Below are positions 30,039 through 51,500 of a stretch of DNA of 64,000 nucleotides, in pieces; position 1 is the first letter of the stretch, and each line of letters starts with the position of its first letter. Origin of the DNA: Gammaproteobacteria bacterium. GTDB taxonomy: Bacteria > Pseudomonadota > Gammaproteobacteria > Eutrophobiales > Eutrophobiaceae. A program made the translations under genes and the position numbers. The notes under the pieces are model-generated. The model searched no databases. It was not told the origin of the DNA and was given only the letters and a program-made list of their open reading frames with translations. The stretch spans positions 283,031 to 347,030 of the forward strand of contig OZ244890.1 of the NCBI GenBank assembly GCA_965221455.1, read 5' to 3'.

Positions 30039-31490
30039 ATGCAGTATGCAGTCGCTCAACGAATACTTGGAATTTTACTCAGTCTGTTTAGTCTGACCTT
30101 GTTGCCGCCCGTCATAATTGCCTGGTGGAGTCATGACGACAGTGTACAAGGGTTTCTCTCTGCATTTATTCTCATCATTATCATCGGTATATCCCTCTGG
30201 TTTCCTGTCCGAAATATTCGCAATGAATTAAAACTCAGAGACGGTTTTATTGTCGTTGTATTGTTCTGGCTAGGTCTGGGGCTCACCGGCGCAATTCCCT
30301 TTATTTTATCAGAAACGCCTCATTTAACTTTTACCGATGCAGTCTTCGAATCCCTGTCCGGCCTAACCACCACCGGCGCCACGATCCTGACCGATATTGA
30401 TGATCTTCCAAAATCGATATTATTTTACCGTCAGGAATTACAATGGTTAGGTGGCATGGGCATTATTGTTCTTGCCGTTGCCGTATTACCCATACTGGGC
30501 GTTGGTGGTATGCAGTTGTACCGGGCGGAAACACCTGGTCCAATGAAAGATTCAAAATTAACACCGAGAATCACAGAGACAGCAAAGGCACTCTGGTATA
30601 TTTATCTTGGTCTGACCATTGTCTGCTGTTTACTTTACTGGGCGGCGGGCATGACTTTTTTTGATGCCATCAGTCATAGTTTTTCAACAGTATCTATCGG
30701 CGGATTCTCCACGCATGATCAGAGTATTGGTTATTACAACAGTGTCTGGATCCAGACAATAGCCATTCTTTTTATGCTGCTTTCAGGGATCAATTTCACC
30801 TTGCATTTTTTCGCATGGCGCAACCAAAGCATCCGACCCTACTGGCATGATACCGAGCTTAGGGCTTACCTCGGCATTTTAGGATCTATTTGTCTGGTCT
30901 CCTGTATCTACATGTTGGTAAAAACCGATTATGCGGATACATCAACAATGCTCATGGAAGCACTCTTTCAATCCATATCAATTGCAACCACAACAGGCTT
31001 CACAACGACACAATATCAAAACTGGCCGAGCTTTTTGCCCATGTTATTGCTTTTCGCGAGCTTTCTCGGTGCCTGCGCGGGTTCCACCGGAGGAGGTATA
31101 AAAGTCGTTCGGATATTACTGCTTTTCAAACAGGGCATGAGAGAGATCAAACGATTGATACATCCCAATGCCATATTTGTCATCAAACTAAATAACAAGC
31201 CCGTTCAGGAACGCGTGATTAATGCGATATGGGGTTTCTTTGCAGCCTATATCTTCGTATTCATATTCCTGCAACTGATCTTGATGTCCACAGGTCTTGA
31301 TGCAATCACCGCTTTTTCCGCGATGGCCGCGTGTATGAACAATATGGGACCGGGACTGGGGGGGGTCAGCGCAAATTATGGCAACATTAATGACGTCGCA
31401 AAATGGGTACTCTGCATCGCCATGCTCATGGGGCGGCTGGAAATATTTACACTGCTCGTATTATTCTCCCCGATCTTCTGGCGTAGATAA
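30039..31490 (+). CDS. trkH: Trk system potassium uptake protein TrkH
   Basis: The 483-aa polytopic membrane protein has the selectivity-like TTTGAT and TTTGFTT motifs. Confidence 0.9.
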   Translation: MQYAVAQRILGILLSLFSLTLLPPVIIAWWSHDDSVQGFLSAFILIIIIGISLWFPVRNIRNELKLRDGFIVVVLFWLGLGLTGAIPFILSETPHLTFTDAVFESLSGLTTTGATILTDIDDLPKSILFYRQELQWLGGMGIIVLAVAVLPILGVGGMQLYRAETPGPMKDSKLTPRITETAKALWYIYLGLTIVCCLLYWAAGMTFFDAISHSFSTVSIGGFSTHDQSIGYYNSVWIQTIAILFMLLSGINFTLHFFAWRNQSIRPYWHDTELRAYLGILGSICLVSCIYMLVKTDYADTSTMLMEALFQSISIATTTGFTTTQYQNWPSFLPMLLLFASFLGACAGSTGGGIKVVRILLLFKQGMREIKRLIHPNAIFVIKLNNKPVQERVINAIWGFFAAYIFVFIFLQLILMSTGLDAITAFSAMAACMNNMGPGLGGVSANYGNINDVAKWVLCIAMLMGRLEIFTLLVLFSPIFWRR

Positions 31491-32107
31491 TGTCTGCAAG
31501 CGATAAAGATAAATGGGACAAGATTTATCAAGCAAGGCAACAAGCATCAGAAAAAAAAGACTTGTCGCCCGCATACATACTCCGTGAATTTCATCATCTA
31601 CTCCCCGATCAAGGTGCAGCCCTGGATCTTGCCTGTGGACTCGGTGCAAACGCCCTGTTTCTGGCACGACACAATTTACACACTCGTGCGTGGGATATCT
31701 CATCAATCGCCATTGAAAGTTTAAATCAATCCGCGAAATCGCTAAAACTTGAAATTAATACAGAAGTGAGAGACATCATTACCCGTCCACCCGATGAAAA
31801 ATCTTTTGACGTCATTGTCATCAGCCATTTTCTGGAACCCGGGATCATGCCGAATATTATCTCGGCACTGCGTGACAGAGGACTACTTTTCTACCAAACA
31901 TTCACCCAGGCACGCATAGACGATAGCGGCCCGAGTAACAGGAAATACCGCCTAAGCAGAAATGAATTGCTGCACTTATGCGCAGGATTGGATATTGTTG
32001 TTTATAGAGAAGAAGACATTATTGGTGATACATCATCGGGTTTTCGAAATCAGGCACTCTGTATCGGCCAACGTAACATGAGGACAGACTCACCCGGTGA
32101 GCAATGA
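31490..32107 (+). CDS. Class I SAM-dependent methyltransferase, TehB/TPMT-like
   Basis: The 205-aa ORF contains ALDLACGLGANALFLARH (motif I) and FDVIVISHFL (motif II). Confidence 0.65.
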   Translation: MSASDKDKWDKIYQARQQASEKKDLSPAYILREFHHLLPDQGAALDLACGLGANALFLARHNLHTRAWDISSIAIESLNQSAKSLKLEINTEVRDIITRPPDEKSFDVIVISHFLEPGIMPNIISALRDRGLLFYQTFTQARIDDSGPSNRKYRLSRNELLHLCAGLDIVVYREEDIIGDTSSGFRNQALCIGQRNMRTDSPGEQ

Positions 32108-32411
32108 AATCATAAATAACCTGCACGCAATGTTGAAACAAGGCAAGGATAACGCCCTGTTGCGTTTCAGTTTAGGTAACGAATACCTCAAGTCAGAAGA
32201 ATATGAAACGGCCATTGAACATCTGCATCACGCATTAAAACAGGATCCGGACTACTCCGCCGCCTGGAAACTCTATGGCAAGGCATTGATCGGCGCTGAT
32301 AAAAATCTTGAGGCTATCGCCGCCTATAAACTGGGCATTGAGAAAGCAGAAAAAAAAGGCGATATCCAGGCCGCCAAAGAAATGAAAATCTTTCTTAAAC
32401 GATTATTGTGA
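32097..32411 (+). CDS. Small tetratricopeptide-repeat protein
   Basis: The 104-aa ORF has a TPR-like helical repeat pattern, ALLRFSLGNEYLKSEEYETAIEHLHHALKQDPDYSAAWKLYGKAL. It overlaps the previous gene by 11 nt. Confidence 0.55.
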   Translation: MSNEIINNLHAMLKQGKDNALLRFSLGNEYLKSEEYETAIEHLHHALKQDPDYSAAWKLYGKALIGADKNLEAIAAYKLGIEKAEKKGDIQAAKEMKIFLKRLL

Positions 32412-32666
32412 ACGTCCGCTCTCAATGCCGGCAGTACATTCACAATAACGTGTATATCGTGGACAGATAGCAGCGCAGCGCGTGTCCTTGATGCTGCATT
32501 GCCGACACGCCTGCCGACAGCAGGTCTGACCTGAACGGCAATGACCTGGTTCACACTCGGCGACGGTCGTCGCAACGGGCGAGCCATCTCGTCATCCGTA
32601 ACAGTCATGGTTACGGCAGAGGATGCGCCAGCCACCCATGAAAACAAACTTCTATCTATTGACCCA

Positions 32667-35600
32667 CTACCGCAAGAGTGCCTCGATATTCGTCCTTACC
32701 TCATTGAACGATGGATTGCCCGGAATGGTATCGAGCAGGCCCACCGTGTCGCGAATACCAAACAGATAGCGGCCCAGCAAGAGTCCGTCACTCTGGTTAG
32801 GATCACCACCGCTGCCATCCACGTCAAGACGACCGCTGGCGAAAGCTCCCGCAATATTCGTCGTGACCGCATTGAACGAGGGACTCCCCGGAATCGTATC
32901 AAGCAAGCCCGCCGCATCACGAATACCAAACAGGTAGCGGCCCAGCAAGAGTCCGTCACTCTGGTTAGGATCACCACCGCTGCCATCGACATCAAGACTC
33001 ACCGCCGCCATCTCCGTCACCGTCACCGTTACGGTGGCCGCCGTGACGGTACGATAGTTGGTGTCGGTACTGGTCACCGTATGCGTGAGTTGCACGGTCT
33101 CGTCGTCTGTATCAGCGTCTTCCACTCCCGTCACGGTGATGGTTTTGGCGGTATTCCAGTCGGTGGTGCCAAACATCAGTGAGGTGGGACTCACCGTCAC
33201 AGCAGCGGCATTGGATTGGGTCACGCTAATCGTCACTGCTTCCGTCGGTGGGGTATTCAAGCGCAGCGTATACATGCCGGTACCTCCACGTTCATGGACT
33301 GTCAGCGTCGTGGAACTCACAGCCACGCCCGGCGTGTCGTTATCATTCAAGGTCACAGCGACGGGATCTATCGTCACGCCACTGGCATAGTCGGCATCTG
33401 TGCTTGTCGCCGTATGCGTGAGTTGCACGGTCTCGTGGTCTGTATCCGTATCCTCAACACCACTCACGGTCACCGTTTGGGCACTGTTCCAGTTGTCTGT
33501 GGTAAACGTCAGTGAGGTGGCACTGAGGGTCACTGCAGTGGTATCGGGATTGGTCACCATAATCGTCACCGGTACGGTCGGTCGCTTGGTCAACGCCAGT
33601 GTATAGGTGCCACTGCCAGCTTCGTCGACCGCCAGCGTGGTCGGACTCACGGTCACGCCCGCCGTCTCATCATCATCCACCGTCACCGCCACCGCACTTA
33701 TCGTCACGGTACCCCCATTGTAGCCAGGGTCGGTACTGGTCGCCGTATGCGTGAGTTGCACGGTCTCGTCGTTCGCATCCGTGTCCTCAACACCACTCAC
33801 GGTCACCGTCTGGACACTGTTCCAGTTGTCTGTGGTAAAGGTCAGTGAGGTGGCACTGAGTGTCACCGCCGTGTCATCGGGATTGCTCACGCTAATCGTC
33901 ACCGGCGCCGTCGGTAGGGTAGACAGGCTTAAACCATACTCGCCGGTCTCACCCTCATTGACCGCCAGCACGTTCAGACTCACGGTCACGCCCGCCGTGT
34001 CGTTATCCGTGACATTCACGGTCACGGCGGGCGGGGTCAGCGCGGCATAGGTCGCATCGCTGCTGCGCACCGCATGGGTCAGTTGCACGCTCTCGTGGTT
34101 CGTATCAGCGTCCTCAATAGCCATTACCGTCACCCTCTGCGGCATATTCCAGTTGCTCGTGCTAAAGTCCAGGCTGGACGGGGTCGCCGGACTCACCGTC
34201 GCCACATCGGCATTGAACGTTTGCGGCAGAATGCTCACGGTCGCCGATGGTCGGCTACCCAGTCGGATGGTATAGGTCGCCGTGAGTCCCTCAGTCACAG
34301 TCAACGTGGTCGGACTCAGCGTAACACCCACCATATCGTTATCTGTTATGGTGATGGCTGGACCGGGAAACACAACCGAGTCGTAAGCTCCGTCGCCGCT
34401 GCCGACATCCGGAAAATTCAGCACCACCGTCTCATCATCTACATCGTCATCCTCAACAGCGGTCACCGTTACCGTCTGCGGGATGTTCCATTGGCGGGTG
34501 GTAAAGGTCAGGCTGATCGGACTCACGGTCGCAGCATTTCTATTGCTGCTTCCTATAGAGAAAATTTCCACCGACCCTGTCGGTTCAGTCGCCAACCTTA
34601 CCGTAAACCCGACAGTCTCGCCCTCATTGAGCACCAGCGCGGGCGGACTCACGACGATACCCGCCGCGCCGTTATCCGTGACACTCACGGTCACGGCGAG
34701 CGGCGTCACCCCGGCATAGCCCGTATCAGCGCTGCTCAGCGCATGACTCAGTTGCACGCTTTCGCTGGTCGTATTCGCGTCCTCAACAGCCGTCACGGTC
34801 ACGGTTTGGGCGGCATTCCAATTGACTGTGGTAAAGGTCAGTGGTGAGGTCACGGTCACCGCAGCATTGTCACTGGTCACGCTAATCGTGACCGCGTGCG
34901 TCGGTAGGGTATTCAAGCGCAGCGTATACTCGCCGGTCCCGCCTTCAAAGACCGCCAGCGTGGTCGTACTCATGGTCACGCCCGGCGCGTCGTTATCCGT
35001 GACATTCACGGTCACAGGGGGCGAGTTCACCCCGGCATAGCGCGTATCGCTGCTGCTCAGCGCATGGCTCAGTTGCACACCGCTCTCGCTGGTCCTGTTA
35101 TTGTCCTCGGCACCCATCACCGTCACCGTCTGCGCCTGGTTCCAGTTATTCCTGGTAAAGGTCAGCGACGCAGTGGCGGTGACGGCGGGATTGTCACTGC
35201 TCACGCTAATCGTGACCGCGTGCGTCGGTAGGGTATTCAGGCGCAGCGTATACTCGTTGGTCTCGCCCTCATTGACCGCCAGCGTGGTCGTACTCACAAT
35301 CACGTTGGCATCGTTATCCGCGACATTCACGGTCACGGGGGGCGGCGTCAGCGCAGCATAGTTCGCATCACCGCCGCTCACCGTATGGGTCAGTTGTACG
35401 CCGCGTTCGTTGGTCGCATTCGCGTCCGCAGCACCCGTCACGCTCACGGTTTGGGCGGCATTCCAGTTGATTGTGCTAAAGGTCAGGGTCGCTGGGCTCA
35501 CGGTCACCGCAGCATTGTCACTGCTCACGGCAATCGTCACCGCCACCGTCGGTCGGCTGCCCAGCACCAGCCCATAGCCGGTGCTGCTGCCCTCGGTCAC

Positions 35601-38231
35601 ATTCAGCGCGGTCGGCGACACCCGCACACCCGCCACCGGGCCTACCGGGTCGGACGTCAGGCTATCGCCTCCCGCATTCGGATAACTCGCCATCACGCGC
35701 AACCAACTGCCTATCTGTGATTGGTCTGATGCAATGGTGTACGTGGCGGTATTGTTCGTCCCCGGTGCGGCGGTAAACGGTCCCGCCGAGGCGGTCGCTG
35801 TCTGCCATTGATATGTAATGGTGCCGACATCGGTATTGGGTGAGGCGTCCGCGTCGGTGACCGACCCCGCCGTCAGTGTGACGCCGACTCGGGCAGTGCC
35901 GGTGAGTGTGCCGATGGCACCGCGACGGTCAGCCCGCACGATATTGGAGAACAGGGTGTCGTTGAAATCCCCGCTCTGGGTGACCCGCACCCGCAGCCAG
36001 TTGCCCTGGTCCGCCGCTTGTACCGTGTAGGTCGCCGCCGTGCCGCCCGGGCTGATAGCTGTTGCACTGCTACAGTTTTGAGTGGTGCAGCGTTGCCATT
36101 GCCGGGCGCTGATATTGACGGTCAACCCGGGATGGCTCAGCGCACCGGCGGTCAGGATATCGCCGACATTGGCCGGGGTGTTGGGGGTACTGTCCTGGAT
36201 GGCGCCTAATGACACGAGCGTCGCATCATGAATATGGTTGTCGGTGGCACTCAGTGCACCGATGGCTTGTTTGGTGATAGCTGCGGCACCGGCCCCGATA
36301 TTGCACAGCGACGAGCTGGTTTGTACGGTTTGTTCGGTGTCGGTCGTGGTCCCTGAGCGCACTCCTAAATCACCGCTGGCGTTACATAAAGTGTCCAATA
36401 AGACCACGCCGTTGTTGGCGGACGGTCGGTAAAACAAGACGCCCGGCCCCGGGATAGCGGTCCATGAGGGGTTCGGACGGGACAGGCCGGACTTCAGGCT
36501 TATACTCTCGAAGAGTGTGCCGGTGCTCGGGGTCGCCTGCCCGGTTGTGATGTGATTATTGATACTTACAGTATCTGCTCTACCGGGGTATTGAACTACC
36601 GTGAGTTGCAACCGACCATCGTTCTCGCGGACGAGTATCGCGCCTGTGATGTCAGCCCCGTTTCTCTCCGTCGCATTGGTATACCCGGCCGGGCCGTTGA
36701 CGAGATAGTTCCTCCAAAAGATCAGATTCGGACGGGTCTCGGTGCCCCCGTGGTTGGTGGTGTCGGTGTCGTAGGCATTGGCACAATGGCTGCCCGCCCC
36801 GGCATTACAGGTGCGTGTCTGGTTCTTGTCGGTGATATTGCCCGCACTCCAGGCGCCCCAGCCGTCGTCGTGGTTTATACCAGAATCTGCCGCCGCTATA
36901 GACTGCTTGGTGAGGTCGTAGGGAGTGGATAGACACAGGTCTCGCAGACCTGGGTGTGTTGTTGTTGTTACTTGTGTCGTGGCGGACTCACGCAACATTA
37001 CGTTGACGGACGTACAAGAAATTTGCGTGATTACTTCACCGTTACTGGCTATAGACAGCCTGCCTGATCCTGGAATAGCGGCGAAGCCGCTGTTAAACGG
37101 ATTGTGCCAGTCGTTGTCGCCTGCATTCCAGGCGGCGAGGAAGTTGGCGAAGGCCGGGAACGCCCTGAGTAGGGTGGTTCGGAAAGGGACCGACAAGTTG
37201 AGGGGTCCTGACTGCCGGTCATACCACGCCTCCAGCGTGGTCGGGCTGATAATCGCCGACATGTCTAGCGGCCTCCACCCGCCGGTCGGATGCCCGGACT
37301 CCGGGTATAGGACCGGATTGGTGCCTTCCGGGCAGGGGGTGTTCGGGCCGGGAGTGCCGACGACGTTGACACTGCACCTCCGCCGGGTCGTCACGGTCTC
37401 ATTATTGATTGACCCGGTGTAGGTGTACGATGCCGTATCCGGTGCTTCTGCGTACATCGGGGTATTGAAATCACGATGTAGTAGTGATGTGCCGATACTG
37501 CCTGCGTTGTATGTATTGACCACCGCTTGCGGGGTATGGCAGCGGGCGTCTCTTTGCACTGTTGTTCTCTCCGGGCGGAGCAGGCTGCCAGTGCCGCCTC
37601 CCTCAATATAGGACTGCGGGTGGCTGTTGTTTCTGCGGCAGCGGACGGTGAATGCTTGCCCGTCTGCGTCATAGACGGTGACCGTGACGTTCAGTCTTGG
37701 GTTGCGCACTCGTCGGGCGATGTTAATAGGACCAATAGAGGTCGTACCATTCACCATAGTAGCATTGCAAAACTCGCTTACGATATCGTCAGTAATCTCG
37801 CCATCTGTGCTGCAATTGTCGTGGGTACCAGAAAAGCCCCAGTTGTCGCCCGCAGGGGTATGACCTAGATTCCCCGCAGTACCACTATGATCGTCGTGGA
37901 CAGCGCTGCTACGTATGAACCAGGGCACGACGACCACATTGTTGCCGACCTGGACGTTGTATCGCCCGTTCAGGAAGGCAAAATTGGAGATGCCGTCACC
38001 ATCTGCGGAGCGGCTTGTGAGACCGCCGCCCAGATTATACCTGTGGCCGCTACCGCCTGTATCCGGGATGATGTAATTGGCGTCGGGTACCCCCGCCACC
38101 CGAAAACTGTCCGCAAGCGGAGCCGTCGCCAGTGCCGCCGGGCTTACCCATGCCGTCATTAGGGCGACGGCGGCTATCATCCCGCGCCAAGACCCCGACC
38201 GTTCGGCGGTTGACCGCAGTTGCCTCGTCAT
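32667..38231 (-). CDS. Giant secreted multi-repeat protein A. Order: signal peptide, ~750-aa Cys-containing N-terminal region, 2 Ig-like modules, ~10 Calx-beta/cadherin-like repeats, tandem dockerin-type C-terminal pair
   Basis: The open frame runs 32667..38624 (1985 aa). A signal peptide MTRQLRSTAERSGSWRGMIAAVALMTAWVSPAALA begins at M132 (ATG 38229-38231). Upstream of that the frame reads HHAPRTT repeats encoded by a heptamer SSR, so it is likely untranslated. The repeats have the form VTVSPTTLxVxEG..TYTLxL...PTxxVTIxV...TFTTxNWNxAQTVTVxGVEDxDxxDE.VQLTH with acidic linkers such as VTDNDTPG and VTVDDDETAG. The C-terminus is LDVDGSGGDPNQSDGLLLGRYLFGIRD twice, a dockerin-like calcium-binding loop plus helix. 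GC3 is very high compared with flanking genes. Confidence 0.8.
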   Translation of the reverse strand: MTRQLRSTAERSGSWRGMIAAVALMTAWVSPAALATAPLADSFRVAGVPDANYIIPDTGGSGHRYNLGGGLTSRSADGDGISNFAFLNGRYNVQVGNNVVVVPWFIRSSAVHDDHSGTAGNLGHTPAGDNWGFSGTHDNCSTDGEITDDIVSEFCNATMVNGTTSIGPINIARRVRNPRLNVTVTVYDADGQAFTVRCRRNNSHPQSYIEGGGTGSLLRPERTTVQRDARCHTPQAVVNTYNAGSIGTSLLHRDFNTPMYAEAPDTASYTYTGSINNETVTTRRRCSVNVVGTPGPNTPCPEGTNPVLYPESGHPTGGWRPLDMSAIISPTTLEAWYDRQSGPLNLSVPFRTTLLRAFPAFANFLAAWNAGDNDWHNPFNSGFAAIPGSGRLSIASNGEVITQISCTSVNVMLRESATTQVTTTTHPGLRDLCLSTPYDLTKQSIAAADSGINHDDGWGAWSAGNITDKNQTRTCNAGAGSHCANAYDTDTTNHGGTETRPNLIFWRNYLVNGPAGYTNATERNGADITGAILVRENDGRLQLTVVQYPGRADTVSINNHITTGQATPSTGTLFESISLKSGLSRPNPSWTAIPGPGVLFYRPSANNGVVLLDTLCNASGDLGVRSGTTTDTEQTVQTSSSLCNIGAGAAAITKQAIGALSATDNHIHDATLVSLGAIQDSTPNTPANVGDILTAGALSHPGLTVNISARQWQRCTTQNCSSATAISPGGTAATYTVQAADQGNWLRVRVTQSGDFNDTLFSNIVRADRRGAIGTLTGTARVGVTLTAGSVTDADASPNTDVGTITYQWQTATASAGPFTAAPGTNNTATYTIASDQSQIGSWLRVMASYPNAGGDSLTSDPVGPVAGVRVSPTALNVTEGSSTGYGLVLGSRPTVAVTIAVSSDNAAVTVSPATLTFSTINWNAAQTVSVTGAADANATNERGVQLTHTVSGGDANYAALTPPPVTVNVADNDANVIVSTTTLAVNEGETNEYTLRLNTLPTHAVTISVSSDNPAVTATASLTFTRNNWNQAQTVTVMGAEDNNRTSESGVQLSHALSSSDTRYAGVNSPPVTVNVTDNDAPGVTMSTTTLAVFEGGTGEYTLRLNTLPTHAVTISVTSDNAAVTVTSPLTFTTVNWNAAQTVTVTAVEDANTTSESVQLSHALSSADTGYAGVTPLAVTVSVTDNGAAGIVVSPPALVLNEGETVGFTVRLATEPTGSVEIFSIGSSNRNAATVSPISLTFTTRQWNIPQTVTVTAVEDDDVDDETVVLNFPDVGSGDGAYDSVVFPGPAITITDNDMVGVTLSPTTLTVTEGLTATYTIRLGSRPSATVSILPQTFNADVATVSPATPSSLDFSTSNWNMPQRVTVMAIEDADTNHESVQLTHAVRSSDATYAALTPPAVTVNVTDNDTAGVTVSLNVLAVNEGETGEYGLSLSTLPTAPVTISVSNPDDTAVTLSATSLTFTTDNWNSVQTVTVSGVEDTDANDETVQLTHTATSTDPGYNGGTVTISAVAVTVDDDETAGVTVSPTTLAVDEAGSGTYTLALTKRPTVPVTIMVTNPDTTAVTLSATSLTFTTDNWNSAQTVTVSGVEDTDTDHETVQLTHTATSTDADYASGVTIDPVAVTLNDNDTPGVAVSSTTLTVHERGGTGMYTLRLNTPPTEAVTISVTQSNAAAVTVSPTSLMFGTTDWNTAKTITVTGVEDADTDDETVQLTHTVTSTDTNYRTVTAATVTVTVTEMAAVSLDVDGSGGDPNQSDGLLLGRYLFGIRDAAGLLDTIPGSPSFNAVTTNIAGAFASGRLDVDGSGGDPNQSDGLLLGRYLFGIRDTVGLLDTIPGNPSFNEVRTNIEALLR

Positions 38232-38541
38232 ACCCGTGAGCGTGTACGTTTTTGCCTCTTGATGCAGGCGGTGCTGTGGAGTATTGCGCGGGTCGCCGTC
38301 AACGCAGCGGGTGTTGCTTCTGTTGCGGTCCGCCAACGCTTCGCTCAAGCGGCGGTTCCAGCACGCTACCTTGCCGTGGATCTGTGGACGGCATCCATGC
38401 GTCAGAGGATGCAGAACCTTATGTCGGGCACTCCCTCCATCCACGGTCACGCATGCGGTGCGTTCGGTCATGGACCAGTTATGCCGGGGCCTGGTGGCGC
38501 AGCGGTCTGCGTGAGTATTGCGGTGGTGGCACCACTTCCAC

Positions 38542-38599
38542 GTGGTGCGTGGTGCGTGGTGCGTGGTGCGTGGTGCGTGGTGCGTGGTGCGTGGTGCGT
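38542..38599. repeat. Heptanucleotide simple sequence repeat (GTGGTGC)x8.3, perfect
   Basis: Read directly from the sequence: cgtGGTGCGTGGTGCGTGGTGCG...gtt. It lies ~310 nt upstream of the probable start of giant gene A, just downstream of a TTGACA-18nt-TAGACT promoter-like element. The unit length is not a multiple of 3. The equivalent site upstream of gene C (~51035-51050) has only an unexpanded gtggtggtg-like remnant. Confidence 0.9.
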
Positions 38600-38601
38600 T
38601 A

Positions 38602-38631
38602 AGTCTAAGTCGTTTTGTCAACATATGTCAA
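38602..38631 (-). promoter_or_regulatory. Putative sigma70-type promoter for giant gene A (-35 TTGACA, 18-nt spacer, -10 TAGACT)
   Basis: The minus-strand sequence is cTTGACAtatgttgacaaaacgacTTAGACTtaa, followed immediately by the heptamer SSR. The homologous stretch upstream of gene C has a degenerate -35 (ACGACA/CTGACA). This is pattern-based only. Confidence 0.3.
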
Positions 38632-39205
38632 GTTCTCTCTAGTCAGTCATCCAGATTGCTATGCTGTCAATTGTACCATTATCCGCGCAGTATTAAATAC
38701 ATCATATCGTGCACCACACCACATATGGCACTGTTTGTTGTGATTGATCATGTACTGTACAGGTCGTGAACAATCCCGGCTCTTTGTGAGAGGCGTATGC
38801 TGTTGTATTTGATTCGCCCATCCGCCGGTTTTTGGTTCAACCGATTGAGCGCTGCAAACCGTCAGTCTTCGTGAATGTCGAGAACGCCTCTGCTTCGGTA
38901 CTGTTGACCGGTAGGCCCACCCAACCTTGCGCACGGTGCGCTTTCCGGCGACTGTTACCGCTGTGGCTCAGGGGCGGCGGGCAAACCCTGTGTCTCCCGG
39001 AGTTGCAGCACACGCAGACGCTGTGCCGCCATTGCATTGTGCATCCCCGCTTGTATCGCTTGACACCCGAGACGATAAACACTCTCAAGCCGATAAACCG
39101 GGTGCCGAGATTACACCCGTCTTTATCCTGCAATGTTGTTGCCGAACTGATACCGCCAGGCCTCTGCAAAGCCTGTGCAATGAACGGTCTGTCTATTGAC
39201 CCACA

Positions 39206-42200
39206 CTATCGCAAGAGTGCCTCGATATTCGTCCTTACCTCGTTGAACGATGGATTGCCCGGAATGGTATCAAGCAGGCCTACCGTATCGCGAATACCAA
39301 ACAGGTAGCGGCCCAGCATGAGACCGTCACTCTGGTTAGGATCACCGCCGCTGCCATCCACGTCAAGACGACCGCTGGCGAAAGCTCCCGCAATATTCGT
39401 CGTGACCGCATTGAACGAGGGACTCCCGGGAATCGTATCAAGCAAGCCCGCCTCATCACGAATACCAAACAGGTAGCGGCCCAGCATGAGACCGTCACTC
39501 TGGTTAGGATTACCGCCGCTGCCATCCACATCAAGACTCACCGCCGCTGTCTCCGTGACCGTCACAACCAGGGCGGCCGTCACGGCACGATAGGCGGTGT
39601 CCATACTCGTCACGGCATGACTCAGTTGTACGCGCTCGTCGTCCGTATCAGCGTCCCGGACACCCATCACCGTCACCGTTTGGGCACTGTTCCAGTTGTC
39701 CTCGGTAAAGGTCAGCGTCGCCGTCACCGTCACCGCATCTGTATCAGGACTGCTCACCGCAACCGTCACCGCCGCACTCGGCCGACTGGTCAACACCAGC
39801 ATATAGGTGCCGGATCCGCCTTCTCCCACCGTCACCCGGCCCGGCGTCAGCGTCAACCCCGCCGTATCATCATCATTCACCGTCACAGACACCGCCGCCG
39901 CCGTCACGGCAGCATAAGCAGTGCCGGTACTCGTCACAACATGACTCAGCTGCACACCGCTGGCGTCATTCGCATCAGCATCCTCAACACCCATCACCGT
40001 CACCGTCTGCGCTGTGTTCCAGTTGTCCTCGGTAAAGGTCAGCGTCGCCGTCACCGTCACCGCCGCCGTATTAGCACTGCTCACCGCAATCATCACCGCC
40101 GCATCCGGCTGGCTGGTCAACGCCAGCATATAATTGCCGCTACCGCCTTCCAAAATCGTCAGCGCGGTCTGACTCACCGCCACGCCCGCTGTATCATCAT
40201 CTCTCACCGTCACATCAACAGCGGCTATCGTCACCGCACCAGCATTGTAGGCGCTATCCGCACTTGCCGACGTATGGCTCAGCCTGACACTTGCATTGTT
40301 CGTATCACCATCCTCAACACCCGTCAGCGTCACTGTCTGGCCCCGGTTCCAGTTGTCCGTGGTAAAGGTCAGGGTCGCCGGACTCGCGGTCGCCCCGGCG
40401 GTATTGCCATTGCTCACCGTCACCCTCACCTCGTCCGTCGGTCGGGTATTTAATACCACCATATAGCTGCCGGTACCGCCTTCATCAATCGTCGGGTTCG
40501 TCGGAGCCACGGTCACGCCCGCCACGTCGTTATCCGCCACGGTCACCGGGAGCGTCGTCGTCACCGCACTGCCGTTGTAGGTACTATCCATGCTGGTCGC
40601 CATATGCGTCAAAAGCACCGTCTCATTGATCCCGTTCGCATCCTCAACCGCCACCACCCTCACCGTCCGGGCCTGGCTCCAGTTGCTTGTCGTGAACATC
40701 AGCGGGGTGCTGCTCACGGTCGCCGCAGCGGTATTGTCACTCGTTACCATAATCGTCACATCGTTGCGCGGCCGGGTCGCCAGCGCCAGCGTATAGCTGC
40801 CCGTGTCGCCTTCACCCACCGTCAACCTGCCCGGCACCACGGTCATACCCGCGATATCATCATCCGTCACTGTCACATCGACAGTGCCTATCGTCAACGC
40901 ATTAGCATTATAGGCAGGATCCGCACTCACTGCCCTGTGACTCACTATGATGCTTGCATCGTTTGCATCAGGGTCCTGGACACCACGCACTGTCACTGTC
41001 CTGGCCGTGCGCCAGTCGCTGGTGGTAAAGGTCAGACTCGTCGGACTCGTGTTTACCACACCACTATTGGGGATCAACAAGTCCACCGTCACAACGGCGA
41101 CCGGTCGACTGGTTAGCGCCAGCATGTAGGTGCCACTACCGCCTTCAGGGACCCTCAGCGTAGACGGCATTACCGTCACACCCGCCGTCTGGATATCTTC
41201 CACAGTCACGGTGACAGCGTTTATCGTCACCGCAGGAGTACCTGCATAGGCAGGACCGCCGCCGTTAAACGTATGCGTCAGGGAGACGGTCTCGTCGTTC
41301 GCATCAGCATCCGCAACACCCATCACCGTCACCGTCTTGGCCGTGTTCCAGTCGTCCATGTCGAAGGTCAGCATCGCTGGACTCACCGACGCCGCTTCAG
41401 CGTCGTCAGTCATCACCGTAATCGTCATTGCCGCCGTCGGCCGGGTATCCAACACCAGCGTATAGGTGTTGTTGTTCGTGCCCTCATTGAACGTCAACGA
41501 GGTCTCACTCACCGTCACGCCCGCCGTCTCGTTATCATCCACAGTCACGCTGACATCGGCTATCGCCACAGCATTACCGTTATAGGTATTATCCGTGCTG
41601 CTCGCCGTATGCGTGAGTTGCACATCAACTTCGTTGTTCGCGTCAGCATCCTCCTCTCCCGTCACTGTAAACGTCTTACCCGTGTTCCAGTCGCTCGTGC
41701 TAAAGGTCAGTGTTGTCGGGCTGACCGACACCGCACCCATGTCACCACTCCCCACCGTAATCATCACGGCATGCGCCGGTTGGGTATTCAACATCAGCAT
41801 ATACTCGACGTTAGCACCTTCGGCGACCTCCAGCCTGGTGGGACTCACGCTCACACCCGGCGTATCGTTATCGCTCACGTTCACGCTGACCGCAGCCGGC
41901 ATCACCGCATTATAGGCGATGTCGCTACTGCTAACTGTATGAGTCAGGCTCGCACGCTCGTTGGTCGAGTTCGCATCTTCAGCACCCGACACGGTGACGA
42001 TTTGTGGTATATTCCAACGGTCTCTGGTAAACATCAGCGGCGTGGCACTGACTGTCGCAGCCTCGTTGTTGCTCGCTACGGTTATCATTACAGCAGTACT
42101 CGGCTGGCTGCCCAAAACCAGCATATAGGTACCGGTACCCCCTTCACTCACGGCCAAGGTGTCAGTACTTACGTTGACGCTTACCATTTCATCATCTGTC

Positions 42201-44938
42201 ACGGTCACCGTAATGCTCACCGCAAGAGCGAGATAACCGGGATCGGCACTGACGGTGCCCAGCCTCAGCGCCACCGTCTCATCGCTTGCATCAGCATCCC
42301 CGATGCCGGTCACCGTCAACGTTCGGGCGATATTCCAATTGGTTTCGTTAAAGGTCAGGCTCGGCGACGGGGTGACGGTCGCAATCGCGGTATCCGCGCT
42401 TTCGATGAGCACAACAACCGGGTGTGTCGGTCGGCTGTGGAGCCTCAGGGTCAACGTGCCCATCTCACCTTCTTTCACGTTGAGTTCAGTCACCACGTCA
42501 AGACCTGCCATGTCGTTATCCGTCAAGTTCACCATCACATCATCCGGCGTCAAGGTGCCATAGCGGGCGTCTGTACTGCTCACCCGATGACTCAGGCGCA
42601 CGCCGCTTTCACTCACCGCATCCACATCCTCAACTCCCATCACCGTCACCGTCTGCGGCATGCTCCAGTTGTCAGAGGTAAACATTAACGGCGACGTCGC
42701 GGTCGCGGCACTGATATCGTCACTACGCACCGTAATATTTACCGCAGCACTCGGCGGCGCATCCAGCACCACGGTATAGTCACCCGTGCCGCCTTCAGCC
42801 ACGGCCAGCGTGGTCAAACTCACCGTCACACCAGGAGACGGCACTTCGTCATCCGTCACCGTCACGGCGACGCTGCGGGCGACTCCATCATAGTTAAGGT
42901 CTGTACTCGCACTATTCAGCGTCAGGCTCACGCTCTCATCCCTGGCGTCAGCATCTTCAACCGCCATCACCGTCACCGTGCGTGGTTGATCCCAGTCGGC
43001 GCCGCTAAACACAAAGTCCGATGGACTGATGCTCACGGCGCCATCATCGGGATTCGAGATGACCATGGAGACAATATCCGTCGGCAGGCTATTCAGGACT
43101 ACCGTGAACGTGTTGTTGCCGCCTTCGGCAACGGTCAACGCGGTCGTGCTCAGCCTCACGCCCGCCGTATCGTTATCCGTCGTGTTGACCACCACAGGGA
43201 AGATGCTGACATCATTGTAATCGTTATCCATGCTGCTCACGGTGTGACTCAGGCGCACGCGCTCGTTGCTGGCATCGGTATCCTCCACGCCGGTCACGGT
43301 CACGGTGCGGGCGACATTCCAATTGGTCGTGGTAAACGTCAACGAGGAAGTCACCGTGACGGCGTCCTGCGCGTCACTGGTCACCATCACGGTCACCGCG
43401 GCACTCGGCCGGGTATTCAATTCCAGCGTATACATACCGGTCGACCCTTCGGCCACCGTCAGCAGGGTCGCACTGACCGTCGCCCCTGCCACTTCGTTAT
43501 CCGTCACCGTCACCGTCACGGTGCCACTGTTATCATCACGGCCAGCATTCGTCACCGTCACCGCCACACGGTTATAGCTGCTATCCATGCTGGTGACCGT
43601 ATGACTCAGGCGCACGCTCTCATGGTCCGAGTCGGCATCCTCAACGCCCGTCACCATCACCGTCTGCACCGTATTCCAGTTATCTTCGGTAAACGTCAGC
43701 GAGGGGGTCGCGCTCACCGCTTCCGGATCGCCACTCGTCACCGCTACCGTCACATCAGCACTCGGCAGGGTATCCAGTACAATGCGATAGCCACCGGTGT
43801 TACTTTCGCCGACCGCCACAGTGGCCGGGGTCACCGTCACACCGACTGTCTCTCTATCCATCACGGTCACATTGACAGGCGAGAATGTCTTACCACTATA
43901 GTCGCCGTCTGTGCTCGCGGTCATATGACGCAGGCGTACTGTCTGGTCGCGTGCATCAGGATCTTGCGCACCGTTCACGGTCACCGTCTGCGCCCGATTC
44001 CAGTTATTCCTGCCAAAGGTCAGGCTCGTTGGACTCGCGGTCGCAATATTCGAATCGTCACTCACTACCATCACTGTTACAGCGTGACTCGGTTGGCTGC
44101 CTAAAGCTAACATGTAGGTGCTGTTGCTACCTTCGTCGACAGTCAAACTGGACGGCACCAGCGTCACACCCACCACTTCGTCATCCGTCACGGTCACAGT
44201 CACAGGATCCGGTGCGAAACCACGGTAGGTAGTATCTGTAGTGGTCACCGTATGGTTCAGGCGCACGGTCGCGTCATTCGCATCTCCATCATGGATACCC
44301 GTCACCATTACCGTCTGGACAGTGAACCAGTTGACGGAGGTAAACATCAGACTCGCCGGGGTCACCCTCGCGGCACCAGTATTGGTACTTGTCACGGCAA
44401 TATTGACATCCTCTGTCGGCGGGCTATTTAGCCTGACAGTATAGTTACCCGTGGCACCTTCATTAACAGTCGGCGTGCTGGAGCTGAACACCACACCAGG
44501 CTGCGCCTCGTCATCTATCACGACTGCGGTTATGTTCTGGTTTGCAGTCGAAGAACTGTTGAAGTTAGTGTTACTACCTTCTGTACGAAATCCCAGACTC
44601 ACCATCTCATGGTTCCCATCAGCATCCTCAATAGCGCGCACCGTCACCATTTGTGCTACATTGGTAGGAACATTGAACATCAGGCTCGCAGGAGTCACTG
44701 TCACGGCATTAGTGTTTCCACTCATCGGTAAAAAGTTTACAGTGCCTGTCGCACCACCAGAGTCTATGGAAACCTGGTAGGTGGCGGTTGCGCCTTCTGC
44801 AATAGTCAGCACACGATCAGCAGTGCTTTGGACGGTCACGCTAAGCTGCGCGAACACCGGAGTGGTAAAAAAACAGCTTAACGCTGCCAAGCGCAGCAAA
44901 TTCAGAACAGAGAGACGACCCGTCATGTTATTCAGCAT
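39206..44938 (-). CDS. Giant secreted multi-repeat protein B. Order: signal peptide, ~16 Calx-beta/cadherin-like repeats, tandem dockerin-type C-terminal pair; no large N-terminal domain
   Basis: The 1910-aa ORF starts MLNNMTGRLSVLNLLRLAALSCFFTTPVFAQ (signal peptide) and goes straight into ~110-aa repeats. Its C-terminal ~110 aa are almost identical to gene A, including ...DTIPGNPSFNEVRTNIEALLR*. It contains a block (41595..41915) nearly identical to part of gene C (47610..47930). Confidence 0.85.
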   Translation of the reverse strand: MLNNMTGRLSVLNLLRLAALSCFFTTPVFAQLSVTVQSTADRVLTIAEGATATYQVSIDSGGATGTVNFLPMSGNTNAVTVTPASLMFNVPTNVAQMVTVRAIEDADGNHEMVSLGFRTEGSNTNFNSSSTANQNITAVVIDDEAQPGVVFSSSTPTVNEGATGNYTVRLNSPPTEDVNIAVTSTNTGAARVTPASLMFTSVNWFTVQTVMVTGIHDGDANDATVRLNHTVTTTDTTYRGFAPDPVTVTVTDDEVVGVTLVPSSLTVDEGSNSTYMLALGSQPSHAVTVMVVSDDSNIATASPTSLTFGRNNWNRAQTVTVNGAQDPDARDQTVRLRHMTASTDGDYSGKTFSPVNVTVMDRETVGVTVTPATVAVGESNTGGYRIVLDTLPSADVTVAVTSGDPEAVSATPSLTFTEDNWNTVQTVMVTGVEDADSDHESVRLSHTVTSMDSSYNRVAVTVTNAGRDDNSGTVTVTVTDNEVAGATVSATLLTVAEGSTGMYTLELNTRPSAAVTVMVTSDAQDAVTVTSSLTFTTTNWNVARTVTVTGVEDTDASNERVRLSHTVSSMDNDYNDVSIFPVVVNTTDNDTAGVRLSTTALTVAEGGNNTFTVVLNSLPTDIVSMVISNPDDGAVSISPSDFVFSGADWDQPRTVTVMAVEDADARDESVSLTLNSASTDLNYDGVARSVAVTVTDDEVPSPGVTVSLTTLAVAEGGTGDYTVVLDAPPSAAVNITVRSDDISAATATSPLMFTSDNWSMPQTVTVMGVEDVDAVSESGVRLSHRVSSTDARYGTLTPDDVMVNLTDNDMAGLDVVTELNVKEGEMGTLTLRLHSRPTHPVVVLIESADTAIATVTPSPSLTFNETNWNIARTLTVTGIGDADASDETVALRLGTVSADPGYLALAVSITVTVTDDEMVSVNVSTDTLAVSEGGTGTYMLVLGSQPSTAVMITVASNNEAATVSATPLMFTRDRWNIPQIVTVSGAEDANSTNERASLTHTVSSSDIAYNAVMPAAVSVNVSDNDTPGVSVSPTRLEVAEGANVEYMLMLNTQPAHAVMITVGSGDMGAVSVSPTTLTFSTSDWNTGKTFTVTGEEDADANNEVDVQLTHTASSTDNTYNGNAVAIADVSVTVDDNETAGVTVSETSLTFNEGTNNNTYTLVLDTRPTAAMTITVMTDDAEAASVSPAMLTFDMDDWNTAKTVTVMGVADADANDETVSLTHTFNGGGPAYAGTPAVTINAVTVTVEDIQTAGVTVMPSTLRVPEGGSGTYMLALTSRPVAVVTVDLLIPNSGVVNTSPTSLTFTTSDWRTARTVTVRGVQDPDANDASIIVSHRAVSADPAYNANALTIGTVDVTVTDDDIAGMTVVPGRLTVGEGDTGSYTLALATRPRNDVTIMVTSDNTAAATVSSTPLMFTTSNWSQARTVRVVAVEDANGINETVLLTHMATSMDSTYNGSAVTTTLPVTVADNDVAGVTVAPTNPTIDEGGTGSYMVVLNTRPTDEVRVTVSNGNTAGATASPATLTFTTDNWNRGQTVTLTGVEDGDTNNASVRLSHTSASADSAYNAGAVTIAAVDVTVRDDDTAGVAVSQTALTILEGGSGNYMLALTSQPDAAVMIAVSSANTAAVTVTATLTFTEDNWNTAQTVTVMGVEDADANDASGVQLSHVVTSTGTAYAAVTAAAVSVTVNDDDTAGLTLTPGRVTVGEGGSGTYMLVLTSRPSAAVTVAVSSPDTDAVTVTATLTFTEDNWNSAQTVTVMGVRDADTDDERVQLSHAVTSMDTAYRAVTAALVVTVTETAAVSLDVDGSGGNPNQSDGLMLGRYLFGIRDEAGLLDTIPGSPSFNAVTTNIAGAFASGRLDVDGSGGDPNQSDGLMLGRYLFGIRDTVGLLDTIPGNPSFNEVRTNIEALLR

Positions 44939-45505
44939 CAGTTATTCCACCATCAGTTCTACAACGATTGATAATATCCCACATTAATTAACGTCATGCG
45001 CTCCCACTGGCAAACCTACCGTTTACCATGTTCATCACCTTCACATCCACGCTGTTTGATATTCGACCAGCGACCGCTGATCGTTGCACGACCGACTACA
45101 GACTGCTGAGCGTACCAGAAAAACACACAATAACTCAAGACCTAATCAATGCTTCTCCGAACGTTTCACGTTTTCACCCATCCCTGATTGATGTCAAGAC
45201 ACTTCTTTTGAAGTCGATGACCTGCAAACCTGCAGCTCAGGATTCCGCCTCCGAGAGGTCATCATTTTTGGCAACGTACACCCGTCTGCAATCGGCGATA
45301 TTTTTTCCTTATTCCCTTGATATTTACAGAAAGCACTACCGGGTTGCTATTATCGTCCGCCAGTCGGTCTATAGCCCAGGAAAGGATACGCGCTGTTAAT
45401 TCGGTACATGTTGCTTGAAATTTTCAATCGGCATGGCCGTACTCACAGCAATAAAAAACAATGAGTCAGCCACCCATGAAAAAACAACTTCCGGCTATTT
45501 CCCCA

Positions 45506-48500
45506 CTACCGCACACGCACAAGCGCTCCGATATTCCTCGTTACGTCGTTGAACGATGGATTGCCCGGGATAGTATCAAGCAAGCCCACAGTGTCACGAA
45601 TACCAAACAGATAACGACCTATCATCAGACCATCACCTTGATTCGCAGCACCGCCGCTGCCATCCACATCAAGACGACCGCTGGCGACAGCCCTTGCAAT
45701 ATTCGCCGTGACCACACTGAACGATGGACTCCCCGGGATAGTATCAAGCAAGCCCACCATATCACGAATACCGAACAGGTAGCGGCCTATCATAAGCCCG
45801 TCACCCTGGTTAGGTGCACCGCCGCTATTATCCACATCAAGACTAATCGCCAGCTCCGTGACAGTCACAAGCACGGCGTCTGGCGTCACCGCAGCATAGC
45901 CTGTATCAGTGCTGCTCACCGTATGCGTTAGCCTGACGCTCTCATTGTCCACATCAACGTCCTCAACACCCGTCACCGTCACCGTCTGGACCCTGTTCCA
46001 CTCGTCTATGGCAAAGGTCAGAGTCGCAGGACTCACCGTCGCCTCAGTCGCATCAGCACTCGTCACCGCAATCCTCACCTCCGCACGCGGCTGGCTGGTC
46101 AACACCAGCGTATAGGTCCTGGTATCATTTTCGGTAACGCTCAGTGTGGTAGGAGTCACCATCACGCCTGCCGTCTCGTCATCATTCACCGTCACGGTGA
46201 CAGCGTCTATCGTCACCGCAGGGTTAGCATCTGCATAGGCAGGTCCGCCGCCGCTAAACGTGTGCGTCAGAGAGACGCTCTCGTTGTTCGCATCAAGATC
46301 CTGCTCACCCGTCACCGTCACCATCTTTGGCGTATTCCAGTCGTCCATGGCAAAGGGCAGTGTCGCTGGACTCACCGACACCGCTCCATCATCGTCAGAC
46401 ATCACCGTAATCACCATCGCCGCCGACGGCTGGGCATCCAGCACCAGCGTATAGGTGGTGGTGTTCGTGCCCTCATCGAACATCAGCTCGGTCTCACTCA
46501 AAGTCACGCCCGCCGTCTCGTCATCATCCACCGTCACAGTGACCCCGGCTATCGTCAAAGCAGGGTTAGCATCTGCATAGGCAGGACCGCCGCCGCTAAA
46601 CGTGTGCGTCAGAGAGACGCTCTCGTTGTTCGCATCAGCATCCGCAATACCTGTCACCGTCACCGGCTTCGGCGCGTTCCAGTCGGCCATGGTAAAGGTC
46701 AGCGTCGCTGGACTCACCGATGCCGCTCCCTCGTCGTCAGACATCACCGTAATCACCATCGCCGCCGTCGGCTGGGTATCCAACACCAGCGTATAGGTGG
46801 TGTTGGCCGTGCCTTCATTGAACATCAGCTCGGTCTCACTCAAAGTCACGCCCGCCGTCTCGTCATCATCCACCGTCACGGTGACCCCGGCTATCGTCAA
46901 AGCAGGGGTGGCATTTGCATAGGCAGGTCCGCCGCCGCTAAACGTGTGCGTCAGAGAGACAGTCTCGTTATTCGCATCAGCATCCTCAACACCCGTCACC
47001 GTAAACACCTTGGGCGTATCCCAGTCGCCCATGGTAAAGCTCAGTGTCGATGGACTCACCGACGCCGCTTCAGCGTCGTTACTCATCACCGAAATCGTCA
47101 TATCCGCCGACGGCTGGACATCCAGCACCAGCGAATAGGTGGTGTTGGTCGTGCCCTCATCGAACGTCAGGTTGGTCTCACTCACCGTCACGCCCGCCGT
47201 CTCGTCATCATCCACCGTCACGGCGACCCCGGCTATCGTCAAAGCAGGGGTGGCATCGGCATAGGCAGGTCCGCCGCCGCTAAACGTGTGCGTCAGAGAG
47301 ACAGTCTCGTTGTTCGCATCAGCATCCTCAACACCCGTCACCGTAAACGTCTTGGGCGTATCCCAGTCGCCCATGGTAAAGCTCAGTGTCGATGGACTCA
47401 CCGACGCCGCTTCAGCGTCGTTACTCATCACCGAAATCGTCATATCCGCCGACGGCTGGACATCCAGCACCAGCGTATAGGTGTTGTTGTTCGTGCCCTC
47501 ATTGAACATCAACTCGGTCTCACTCACCGTCACGCCCGCCGTCTCGTCATCATCCACCGTCACGGAGACAGCGGTTATCGCCACCGCATTACCATTATAG
47601 GTATTATCCGTGCTGCTCGCCGTATGCGTGAGCTGCACATTGACTTCGTTGTCCGCGTCAGCATCCTGCTCTCCCGTCACCGTCACCGTCTTACCCGTGT
47701 TCCAGTCGGCCGTAGTAAAGGTCAGTGTTGTCGGGCTGACCGACGCCGCACCCATGTCGCCACTCGCCACCGTAATCATCACGTCCGCCGCCGGTTGGGT
47801 ATTCAGCATCAGCATATACTCGACGTTAGCACCTTCGGCGGGCTCCAGCCTGGTGGGACTCACGCTCACACCCGGCGTGTCGTTATCCCTCACGGTAACG
47901 GCCACAGTAGTCAGCATCAACGGTCGATAGAGCACATCGCTGCTATTATCCACTGTATGCGCCAGGCTGACGTTTCCGTCGGTCGCATTACTATCCTCAA
48001 CACCCATCACCGTCACCGTCTTGGCCGTGTTCCAGTCAACATTGGTAAAGGTCAGTGATGTCGGGCTGACCGTCGCCGCTCCCGTGTCGCCAGTCGCCAC
48101 CACCATAATCGTCACATCCGTCATCGGCCGAGTCTCCAGCATCAGCGTATAGCCGCCGCTACCGCCCTCACTGACCTCCAGCGTGGACGCATTCAAAGTC
48201 ACGCCCGCCGTGTCGTTATCATCCACATTAACGGTGACACCAGCTATCGTCACCGCATTACCATTGTAGGTCGCATCCGTGCTCTCCGCCGTATGCGTGA
48301 GCCGCACACTGACTTCGTTGTTCGCGTCATCATCCTGCTCACCCGTCACCGTCACCATCCGGGCCACGTTCCAGTTAGCACCGGTAAAGGTTAGTGTTCC
48401 CGGGTTGACCGACGCCGCATCCGCGTCGCCACTCGCCACCGTAATCACCACGTCATTCGCTGGCTGGCTGGTCAACATCAGCGTATAGATGCCGGTCTCT

Positions 48501-50770: not shown

Positions 50771-51500
50771 CTCGCGCCGAACTCCTGGCCCGCTGGCAAG
50801 TTCGGCGGTCGACCGCAGTTTCCCCGTGATGCCCGCAAAAGTGTACGCTTTTGCATAGTGATAGCGCATGTGCAGTGAGGTGTTGCGCCTATCGCCGTCA
50901 ACGCAGCGGGCGATGCCACGGTGCTTGCGCGTCAGACGATGCAGAATACCGTGTTGTGTACACAACACGTCCGCAGCAACGTGCGCTTCACATTCGGTCA
51001 TGACAATGTTAAGCCTGTGTCTGGTGGAGGTGTGGTGGTGGTGCTTGTCGCACGACACCAGCGTGGTGGTAAGGCGTTTACGTAATTTTGTCAGCATATG
51101 TCGTGTTCTCTCTCGTAAGTAGTCCAGATTTACCCCCACATACCCATCCCGCCCGTGACTGTTTCCAGTCCCCGCTGTGGACAGTTAGTTGAAGTGGATG
51201 CTATTATAGCCAACAGATACCTCGATTGATACCACTATCCGATACCCATGCGCCCAGGCGCCCAGGCGCGGTGGTGAGGGCAAAATCGGATACAGATACG
51301 AATGATGGGTACTTGAGTCTGAGCTATCGTGTCCAGTGAAGACCTTGAACGGCAACAATATCACCATTCCCTGCTGTCGCCGTCGTGCTATCACGAAATC
51401 GGAACGGCGGGCAGGAATCCGAAAATTTCGCCAGCAACGCCACCGCACGTAATATTCCGGCAGTATCTTTTTTTCAAGATGCCGTGTCGCATGGACCGGG

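Follow-up and report, generated by a model that had tools for sequence, protein, structure and literature searches.

Intragenic simple sequence repeats (SSRs) such as CTCTT in the Neisseria opa genes and CAAT in Haemophilus influenzae lic1 are the classical examples of contingency sequences. Among bacterial SSRs, heptamers have been reported to be over-represented (PMC4692102; PMC4679880), and heptanucleotide precedents are already known for two functional mechanisms, one acting on the reading frame (neuO) and the other through the 5′ UTR (hmw1A). Specifically, neuO encodes an O-acetyltransferase of the E. coli K1 prophage CUS-3 and carries a heptanucleotide tract, (AAGACTC)n, in its 5′ coding region; the tract ranges from 3 to 53 units among 64 genomes and only every third copy number allows the complete protein to be translated (PMC13001214). 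In the hmw1A and hmw2A genes of non-typeable H. influenzae, (ATCTTTC)n is transcribed within the leader and larger numbers of units lower expression. For hmw1A the mechanism involves a long 5′-UTR hairpin, formed by about 10 repeats and a G-rich arm, that is cut by RNase III (PMC12721329). The hmw heptamer repeats are also treated in PMC8262952 and PMC2424069.

The stretch of DNA analysed here (termed the window) is 64 kb long and comes from an uncultured environmental gammaproteobacterium. It contains a heptanucleotide tract at the 5′ end of a very large gene, termed gene A, which an initial annotation had read as a candidate contingency locus acting through a promoter and transcript leader. 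The tract is a credible candidate for a slipped-strand on/off switch. Furthermore, the sequence features described below suggest that a shift of reading frame by the tract is at least as likely as an effect on the promoter or leader.

The heptanucleotide tract and the giant genes

Eight perfect GCACCAC units occupy positions 38542–38597 on the minus strand, which is the gene strand. With partial units included, the array extends from 38541 to 38599, and Tandem Repeats Finder assigns it a period of 7, 8.4 copies, 100% matches, no indels and a score of 118, which confirms the perfect 7-bp repeat described in the initial annotation. Read on the minus strand, the tract is AC-(GCACCAC)x8-G, with its units running from 38597 to 38542 in the context ...TTGACAtATGTTGACAAAACGACTTAGACTTAAC(GCACCAC)x8 GTGGAAGTGGTGCC.... 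The two-unit 14-mer GCACCACGCACCAC has seven overlapping matches compared with 0.02 expected from shuffled sequences, and a regular-expression scan for every unit of 2–9 nt present in at least four copies identified this tract as the sole microsatellite of the window. Single GCACCAC heptamers also occur elsewhere in the window, for a total of 23 matches (10.4 expected), eight of which belong to the tract. An inverted heptamer (G-TGGAA-GTGGTGC; 38529–38541, minus strand) can pair with the final two units of the tract in a local hairpin, and the junction of the two elements reads as the palindrome CCACGTGG. The heptamer recurs in inverted orientation (GTGGTGC on the gene strand) at 38711–38717, 113 nt upstream of the tract. 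In another part of the window, a 453-bp unit is present twice with 96% identity (58577–59475) inside an ORF of 545 aa (57843–59480).

Gene A (32667–38624) is accompanied by giant genes B (39206–44938) and C (45506–51139), all three on the minus strand. These genes are the only contents of an island located between tehB-TPR and ampE. The A/B/C block (measured over 32600–51200) is 59% GC inside a 44% GC genome, and neither of the two nearest available genomes (L001 and L002) carries it downstream of tehB-TPR. The TrkH proteins of these two genomes are at least 90% identical to that of the window, and the adjacent gene shares approximately 84% nucleotide identity; the nearest RpoB is 94% identical. 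The tehB-like methyltransferase/TPR gene itself (31490–32411) is a 306-aa ORF in L001 and L002, and is split here into ORFs of 205 and 104 aa by one extra C near 32093 (CACCCGG versus CA-TCAG). This split could reflect a genuine frameshift or an indel in the long-read consensus, a question that bears on how far the frames of the assembly can be trusted. The source is probably a long-read metagenome-assembled genome.

When residues 1–420 of gene A were used for an exhaustive HMMER search against 1.84 billion representative proteins, the only true relatives found were P0013 (3182 aa) and P0014 (1250 aa), and a word-based protein search yielded a further relative, P0001 (485 aa). All three are paralogs from one genome, because the 2,504,188-bp contig that encodes them also encodes the TrkH, EgtB and RpoB of the window. 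The family has six or more members, all of them on one 2.5-Mb contig, and neither the word-based nor the exhaustive protein searches returned a relative of the giant proteins from outside this genome. At the DNA level, a scan of genome contigs gave 38 pattern matches to the leader alignment, none of which is a relative, and a scan of metagenome contigs for a 19-mer conserved between A and C gave 48 matches, all of them chance 19–29-mer matches. When the out-of-frame upstream ORF of P0001 was sought as a small protein, only low-complexity microsatellite translations were returned.

Along its length, P0013 matches best to A, then P0014, C, A again and finally B, with 81–97% identity. This segmental mosaicism suggests that recombination has occurred among the giant-gene paralogs. 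P0001 is a recent duplicate of gene A, with an annotated start that points to a different frame state. Searches of Pfam and NCBIfam gave no assignment of the giant proteins beyond weak fn3-like repeats, and no two-partner-secretion (TPS) domain was found in A, B or C. The secretion-related features predicted from an alignment of five paralogs are an invariant hydrophobic core and an AxA site. At their C-termini, A, B and C share a duplicated module of about 56 aa (LDVDGSGG.PNQSDGL.LGRYLFGIRD...), encoded at 32686–32998, at 39225–39537 and at the 3′ end of C, which weakly matches the type I dockerin of Clostridium thermocellum Xyn10B (1OHZ_B, E = 0.07) and has no Pfam hit.

The claim that only gene A has the tract holds inside the window; outside it, the comparison covered P0013, which lacks the tract. 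The features expected of an SSR contingency locus that are present here are a perfect, long array and a unit length not divisible by three, located in a 5′ region. The contingency-locus idea is therefore borne out in its anatomical part, since the pure SSR sits at the 5′ end of a giant, signal-peptide-bearing gene with mosaic paralogs, and on these grounds of sequence architecture we regard the idea as reasonable.

Start codons and reading frames of the gene A leader

The initial annotation had dismissed a 131-codon upstream extension of the gene A ORF as almost certainly spurious, and had placed the start of the signal peptide at the ATG of MTRQLRS (38229–38231, minus strand). The distance of about 310 nt that it gave from the tract to this ATG is correct (310 nt from the tract end to 38231). 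Neither of the other two claims is supported by comparison with the paralogs. Public annotation begins gene A at MLTK, giving a product of 1985 aa, and does the same for gene C and P0013, both of which are tract-less. The ATG of this upstream ORF (MLTKRLRLN...; 38622–38624, minus strand) is conserved in gene C (51095–51097) and in P0013, whose N-terminus (MLTKRLKRNMTTTW...) represents an MLTK start without a tract. Thus, the upstream ORF is not a product of the tract, because paralogs without the tract have it too.

The leaders of A and C can be aligned from about 33 nt upstream of the shared ATG (38624 in A, 51097 in C) through the signal peptide, and the intergenic DNA farther upstream is unrelated. 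Such an edge of homology would be expected if a ribosome-binding site and a start codon bound the gene unit. This 5′ edge (38633–38657, minus strand) includes the conserved purine-rich sequence AGAGAGAA (38633–38640), located 8 nt before the ATG, which is a weak Shine-Dalgarno candidate for MLTK (−3.5 kcal/mol in A, −5.1 in C). The homologous leader of gene C (50710–51130, minus strand) lacks an expanded tract and retains a CACCAC remnant at about 51022–51047; the gaps in the A/C nucleotide alignment downstream of the MLTK ATG are 48, 9, 69, 9 and 9 nt. Farther upstream of gene C, approximately 150 nt before its MLTK ATG, an octamer repeat on the gene strand, (CGCCTGGG)x3.1 at 51245–51269, lies just upstream of a TATAAT-containing stretch.

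In the alignment of A, C, P0001, P0013 and P0014, two methionines are invariant, namely that of Met-Thr-Glu (MTE; ATG at 38469–38471) and Met149, the first residue of the hydrophobic core, which precedes the AxA site (MIAAVALMTAWVSPAALA|TAP; 38127–38180, minus strand). All length differences are in frame, and the frame is open from MTE in five of five paralogs. In contrast, the Met of MTRQ is replaced by Ile in C and P0013 and is deleted in P0014. Since P0001 and P0014 are annotated from MTE, which corresponds to residue 52 of A, the segment between MLTK and MTE is known in frame in only three of the five paralogs, a count that alone is not significant.

The composition of the leader was also examined. 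Frame 0 of the aligned A and C leaders contains no stop codon, compared with 2–10 in each of the other five frames, and it has the best codon-usage score for both genes. A first-order Markov simulation places the probability of an open MTE-Met149 frame arising by chance at approximately 0.10 for A and 0.16 for C. The GC fractions at codon positions 1, 2 and 3 are 0.44, 0.41 and 0.72 in the MLTK-MTE segment of gene C, and about 0.56, 0.52 and 0.68 in the gene bodies. No excess of third-position substitutions was found in the A/C leader, a result that carries no information, as the pattern is equally flat in the bodies of A and C, which are certainly coding (0.25/0.23/0.27 in one stretch, 0.08/0.10/0.12 in another); this test was therefore dropped as proof of a non-coding leader. 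At the amino-acid level, the leaders of A and C are identical to the same degree in all six frames, with no advantage for frame 0, and the leader peptide, which is rich in Arg, His, Thr and Cys, has no protein-family match. Shine-Dalgarno pairing is best at Met149 (−6.2 kcal/mol in A, −6.9 in C), weak at MLTK and absent at MTE, and no candidate start stands out from random 22-mers of the island (median −3.9, 10th percentile −7.0 kcal/mol).

Both frames other than that of the gene are closed at the MTE start codon. A TAA (38479–38481) and the TGA of an overlapping ATGA (38468–38470) lie within 38468–38481 on the minus strand in A, and the TAA, the ATGA and the MTE ATG are all kept at 50998–51011 in gene C. 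The placement of stops for both wrong frames at a start codon is a layout that would favour termination followed by re-initiation. Taken together, the alignments suggest that the leader is probably translated from MTE or from farther upstream, and the chance that MLTK specifically is used as the start appears to be about even. For annotation, this means that the long N-terminal extension of these giant genes should not be cut back as artefactual, because five paralogs keep it in frame and the MTRQ start is not conserved.

Several other candidate features of the extension were considered and set aside. A twin-arginine signal is not conserved (RR occurs in C only), a lipobox would require a Cys that does not follow the hydrophobic core, and a zinc-binding Cys/His domain is contradicted by the presence of just one invariant Cys (in CVDG). 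An ops/RfaH-like element, GGCGGTAG at about 38052–38059, is a single 8-mer within the coding region and occurs at about the frequency expected by chance.

Proposed frame switching and its alternatives

Because the claim of a spurious extension is not supported, the most likely mechanism moves from a promoter or leader effect to the switching of reading frames. When the tract was varied in silico from 2 to 14 units, the frame of MLTK ran on into gene A at 2, 5, 8, 11 and 14 units. At every other number it ended after 36–63 codons, at the TAA beginning 10 nt ahead of the MTE ATG or at the ATGA that overlaps this ATG. The present eight units, which are codons 10–28 of the MLTK frame and encode (APRTTHH)n, correspond to a read-through state. 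Our best explanation, which we hold tentatively and with somewhat less than even confidence, is that the tract serves as an intragenic translational frame switch resembling that of neuO.

According to this explanation, a heptanucleotide microsatellite born of slippage would lie inside the 5′ end of the extended frame of gene A. This frame would proceed from MLTK (38624) through the tract codons to MTE (38471), and then through the hydrophobic signal segment into a mature protein of 1,800 residues. With eight units, ribosomes starting at MLTK would read straight on into gene A. Slipped-strand mispairing that adds or removes one unit would place these ribosomes out of frame, and they would stop at the TAA or the ATGA. 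Protein would then be made only by re-initiation at MTE, or by independent initiation at MTE or Met149, and the outcome of frame loss would be an OFF or low state, possibly with another N-terminal extension. The observations that underlie this model are the tract, the frame arithmetic, the conservation of ATG and stop codons, and the maintenance of frame among paralogs; the use of MLTK, the change in tract length and the effect on expression are inferred. Weighing against the model are the weak Shine-Dalgarno pairing at MLTK, the annotation of P0001 and P0014 from MTE, and a leader peptide that shows neither higher identity in frame 0 nor a family match. In addition, an extension of 148–165 residues before the signal peptide exceeds the long signal peptides known to us, and the split tehB-TPR gene points to possible indel errors in the assembly.

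The promoter-proximal or 5′-UTR modulator favoured by the initial annotation, which would act in the manner of hmw1A, is a serious rival, although we consider it somewhat less likely than frame switching. Transcription from the sigma-70-like element TTGACA-18-TAGACT (38602–38631, minus strand; TTGACA at 38631–38626, an 18-nt spacer, and TAGACT at 38607–38602) would start at about 38595, inside the first unit. If these hexamers form a promoter, the transcript would not contain the MLTK ATG, whose codon and codons 2–6 the element overlaps, and the tract would be 5′ UTR ahead of MTE. It would then make up the first 55 nt or so of a leader that extends for about 125 nt before MTE or about 415 nt before Met149, and changes in the number of units would adjust expression by way of leader length, RNA structure or processing, or Rho loading. 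The promoter scan recovered the element that had been reported beside the tract, matching consensus at 10 of 12 positions; it is the only such site in 38000–39300, is on the correct strand, and has its −10-like hexamer 3 nt from the beginning of the tract. However, one site was found where shuffled sequences gave 0.7, so the motif by itself is no evidence of a promoter. Both hexamers are closer to consensus in A than in the aligned leader of gene C, which has ACGACA for TTGACA and TAAACG for TAGACT, and a 48-nt gap with a CACCAC remnant at the tract position, as the initial annotation had stated for the remnant and the degenerate −35. This same comparison counts against the modulator, because gene C has kept the ATG within the spacer but not the hexamers. 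In its favour, the Met that is invariant, and from which P0001 and P0014 are annotated, is that of MTE rather than that of MLTK, but MTE has no Shine-Dalgarno sequence. The composition of the tract is unusual: its 78-nt window has the top C/G ratio of the 18.5-kb island (3.36; 99th percentile 1.98), and the homologous spot in gene C is likewise extreme (2.31). We infer from this C-rich, G-poor composition alone that the tract would fit a Rho-loading site; that such a site is tuned by tract length (C/G 3.4) is more speculative. There is also precedent, in that (ATCTTTC)n of hmw1A is transcribed as 5′ UTR and sets the level of expression (PMC12721329). In contrast with hmw1A, the gene A leader forms only a local 12-bp hairpin and no long hairpin between the repeat and a G-rich arm. 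Minimum-free-energy and centroid folds leave most of the tract unpaired, with only the last two units pairing with the downstream GUGGAAGUGGUGC. A structured RNA or riboswitch was rejected, since a search of Rfam at E ≤ 1 gave no match for the leader, and its predicted folding is not better than that of shuffled sequences (z = +0.62 and −0.92). A G-quadruplex on the G-rich strand was judged weak from its sequence, which has only GG runs with 5-nt loops. The spacers between the giant genes are about 570–580 nt long (38625–39205 and 44939–45505). No intrinsic terminator on the gene strand was predicted in the part of these spacers that was scanned (38000–39300), so transcription could continue from gene B into gene A.

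A neutral microsatellite, expanded by replication slippage from a CAC/ACC-rich seed in a poorly constrained leader, is likewise a serious rival to frame switching, if a somewhat less likely one again. Gene A would in this case be expressed from Met149 or MTE whatever the number of units, with no regulatory consequence. GCACCAC is a generally slippage-prone motif, because the genome contig scan found the identical heptamer at four or more copies in at least 116 other bacterial species (loci L004–L119), in mixed coding and non-coding contexts and in up to 17 copies. Among the 122 tracts listed, 14 have at least eight units and about a third lie outside any long ORF; their hosts, among the matches listed, are mostly GC-rich Chloroflexota, Actinomycetota, Gemmatimonadota and Verrucomicrobiota. 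Several genomes carry multiple such loci, including an Acidimicrobiia MAG and a Chloroflexota MAG. Neutrality would also accord with the best ribosome-binding site being at the invariant Met149, with the lack of protein-level constraint on the leader sequence, and with the seeds ACCACCACG and CACCACCACCAC found in the tract-less gene C and P0013. Against it, the tract is the only SSR in 64 kb, is fully pure and is in a frame-compatible state, at the 5′ end of a diversifying family of surface-type genes. Moreover, the stops of the alternative frames sit exactly at a conserved ATG, and the maintenance of frame in five paralogs argues that the leader is read by ribosomes. Very improbable is an assembly artefact, in which the unit number or the tract itself was mis-assembled. 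The genome, from an uncultured lineage, consists of one 2.5-Mb contig, and the nearby tehB-TPR gene differs by one extra base from its two relatives, but the tract flanks align cleanly with gene C. Errors in long-read consensus sequences are mainly homopolymer indels, which is a poor match for eight new perfect heptamers.

Frame switching could also take a more elaborate form with two starts. Here the number of units would select between read-through, yielding a protein with a repeat-bearing extension, and a stop followed by re-initiation at MTE. We consider this form improbable. If it were true, slippage would alter both the amount and the N-terminus of one of six private, recombining, GC-foreign and giant dockerin-tailed proteins. 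Contingency or antigenic variation of the kind used by pathogens would then exist beyond host-adapted bacteria, in a free-living gammaproteobacterium, perhaps for evasion of phages or grazers.

Comparison with described repeat systems

To our knowledge, SSR contingency behaviour has been documented almost only in host-adapted pathogens with small genomes. If the gene A tract switches, this behaviour would extend to an uncultured environmental gammaproteobacterium, and would be linked there to a mosaic family of giant secreted proteins that is private to this genome.

Tandem heptanucleotide units are a feature that the tract has in common with the GGGAATC arrays of Xanthomonas, the GGGGAYT arrays of Nostoc, the STRR of Calothrix and the TAACTGA arrays of Beggiatoaceae. 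Those families comprise dozens to hundreds of arrays per genome, mostly intergenic and in some cases G-quadruplex-forming, whereas here there is a single array in the 64-kb window, with only GG runs on its G-rich strand. A different kind of parallel concerns the N-terminal extension. Very large exoproteins are known to have extended signal peptides, of about 71 aa in FhaB, 68 aa in HMW1 and 90 aa in GspB. Members of the gene A family resemble these giant secreted proteins in having a long basic extension before an ordinary hydrophobic core and AxA site. Their extensions differ in length, as they would comprise 77 aa in P0014, 98 aa in C and 115 aa in A if counted from MTE, and 166 aa in A if counted from MLTK, and they lack an ESPR-type motif or family match.

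Like opa and lic1, the gene A tract has a unit not divisible by three, lies in the putative signal-peptide or 5′ coding region of a member of a candidate surface-paralog family, and is accompanied by several alternative ATGs. In contrast, the units of opa and lic1 are 4–5 nt long and occur at many loci in host-adapted pathogens, while there is one 7-nt tract in 64 kb of this environmental genome. Like the repeats of hmw1A and hmw2A, the tract is an SSR of heptanucleotide units located at the 5′ end of a gene that has paralogs and encodes a very large, adhesin-like protein predicted to be secreted. The two arrangements part in other respects: gene A has neither a two-partner-secretion domain nor an adjoining transporter gene, no RNase III-type hairpin between the repeat and a G-rich arm is predicted in its leader, and its tract is in frame with the gene.

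The correspondence with neuO concerns the arrangement of the tract and not the product, because the protein and the organism are unrelated to those of gene A and the upstream start codon is putative here. Copy-number variation is documented for neuO, whereas the gene A tract is known from one genome. Furthermore, gene A has an invariant second ATG that bears the stops of both wrong frames and could rescue expression. Nevertheless, both genes have a perfect array of 7-nt units just downstream of a start codon, in which three units encode a heptapeptide, and both would be read through at every third copy number, gene A being in frame at 2, 5, 8 and 11 units.
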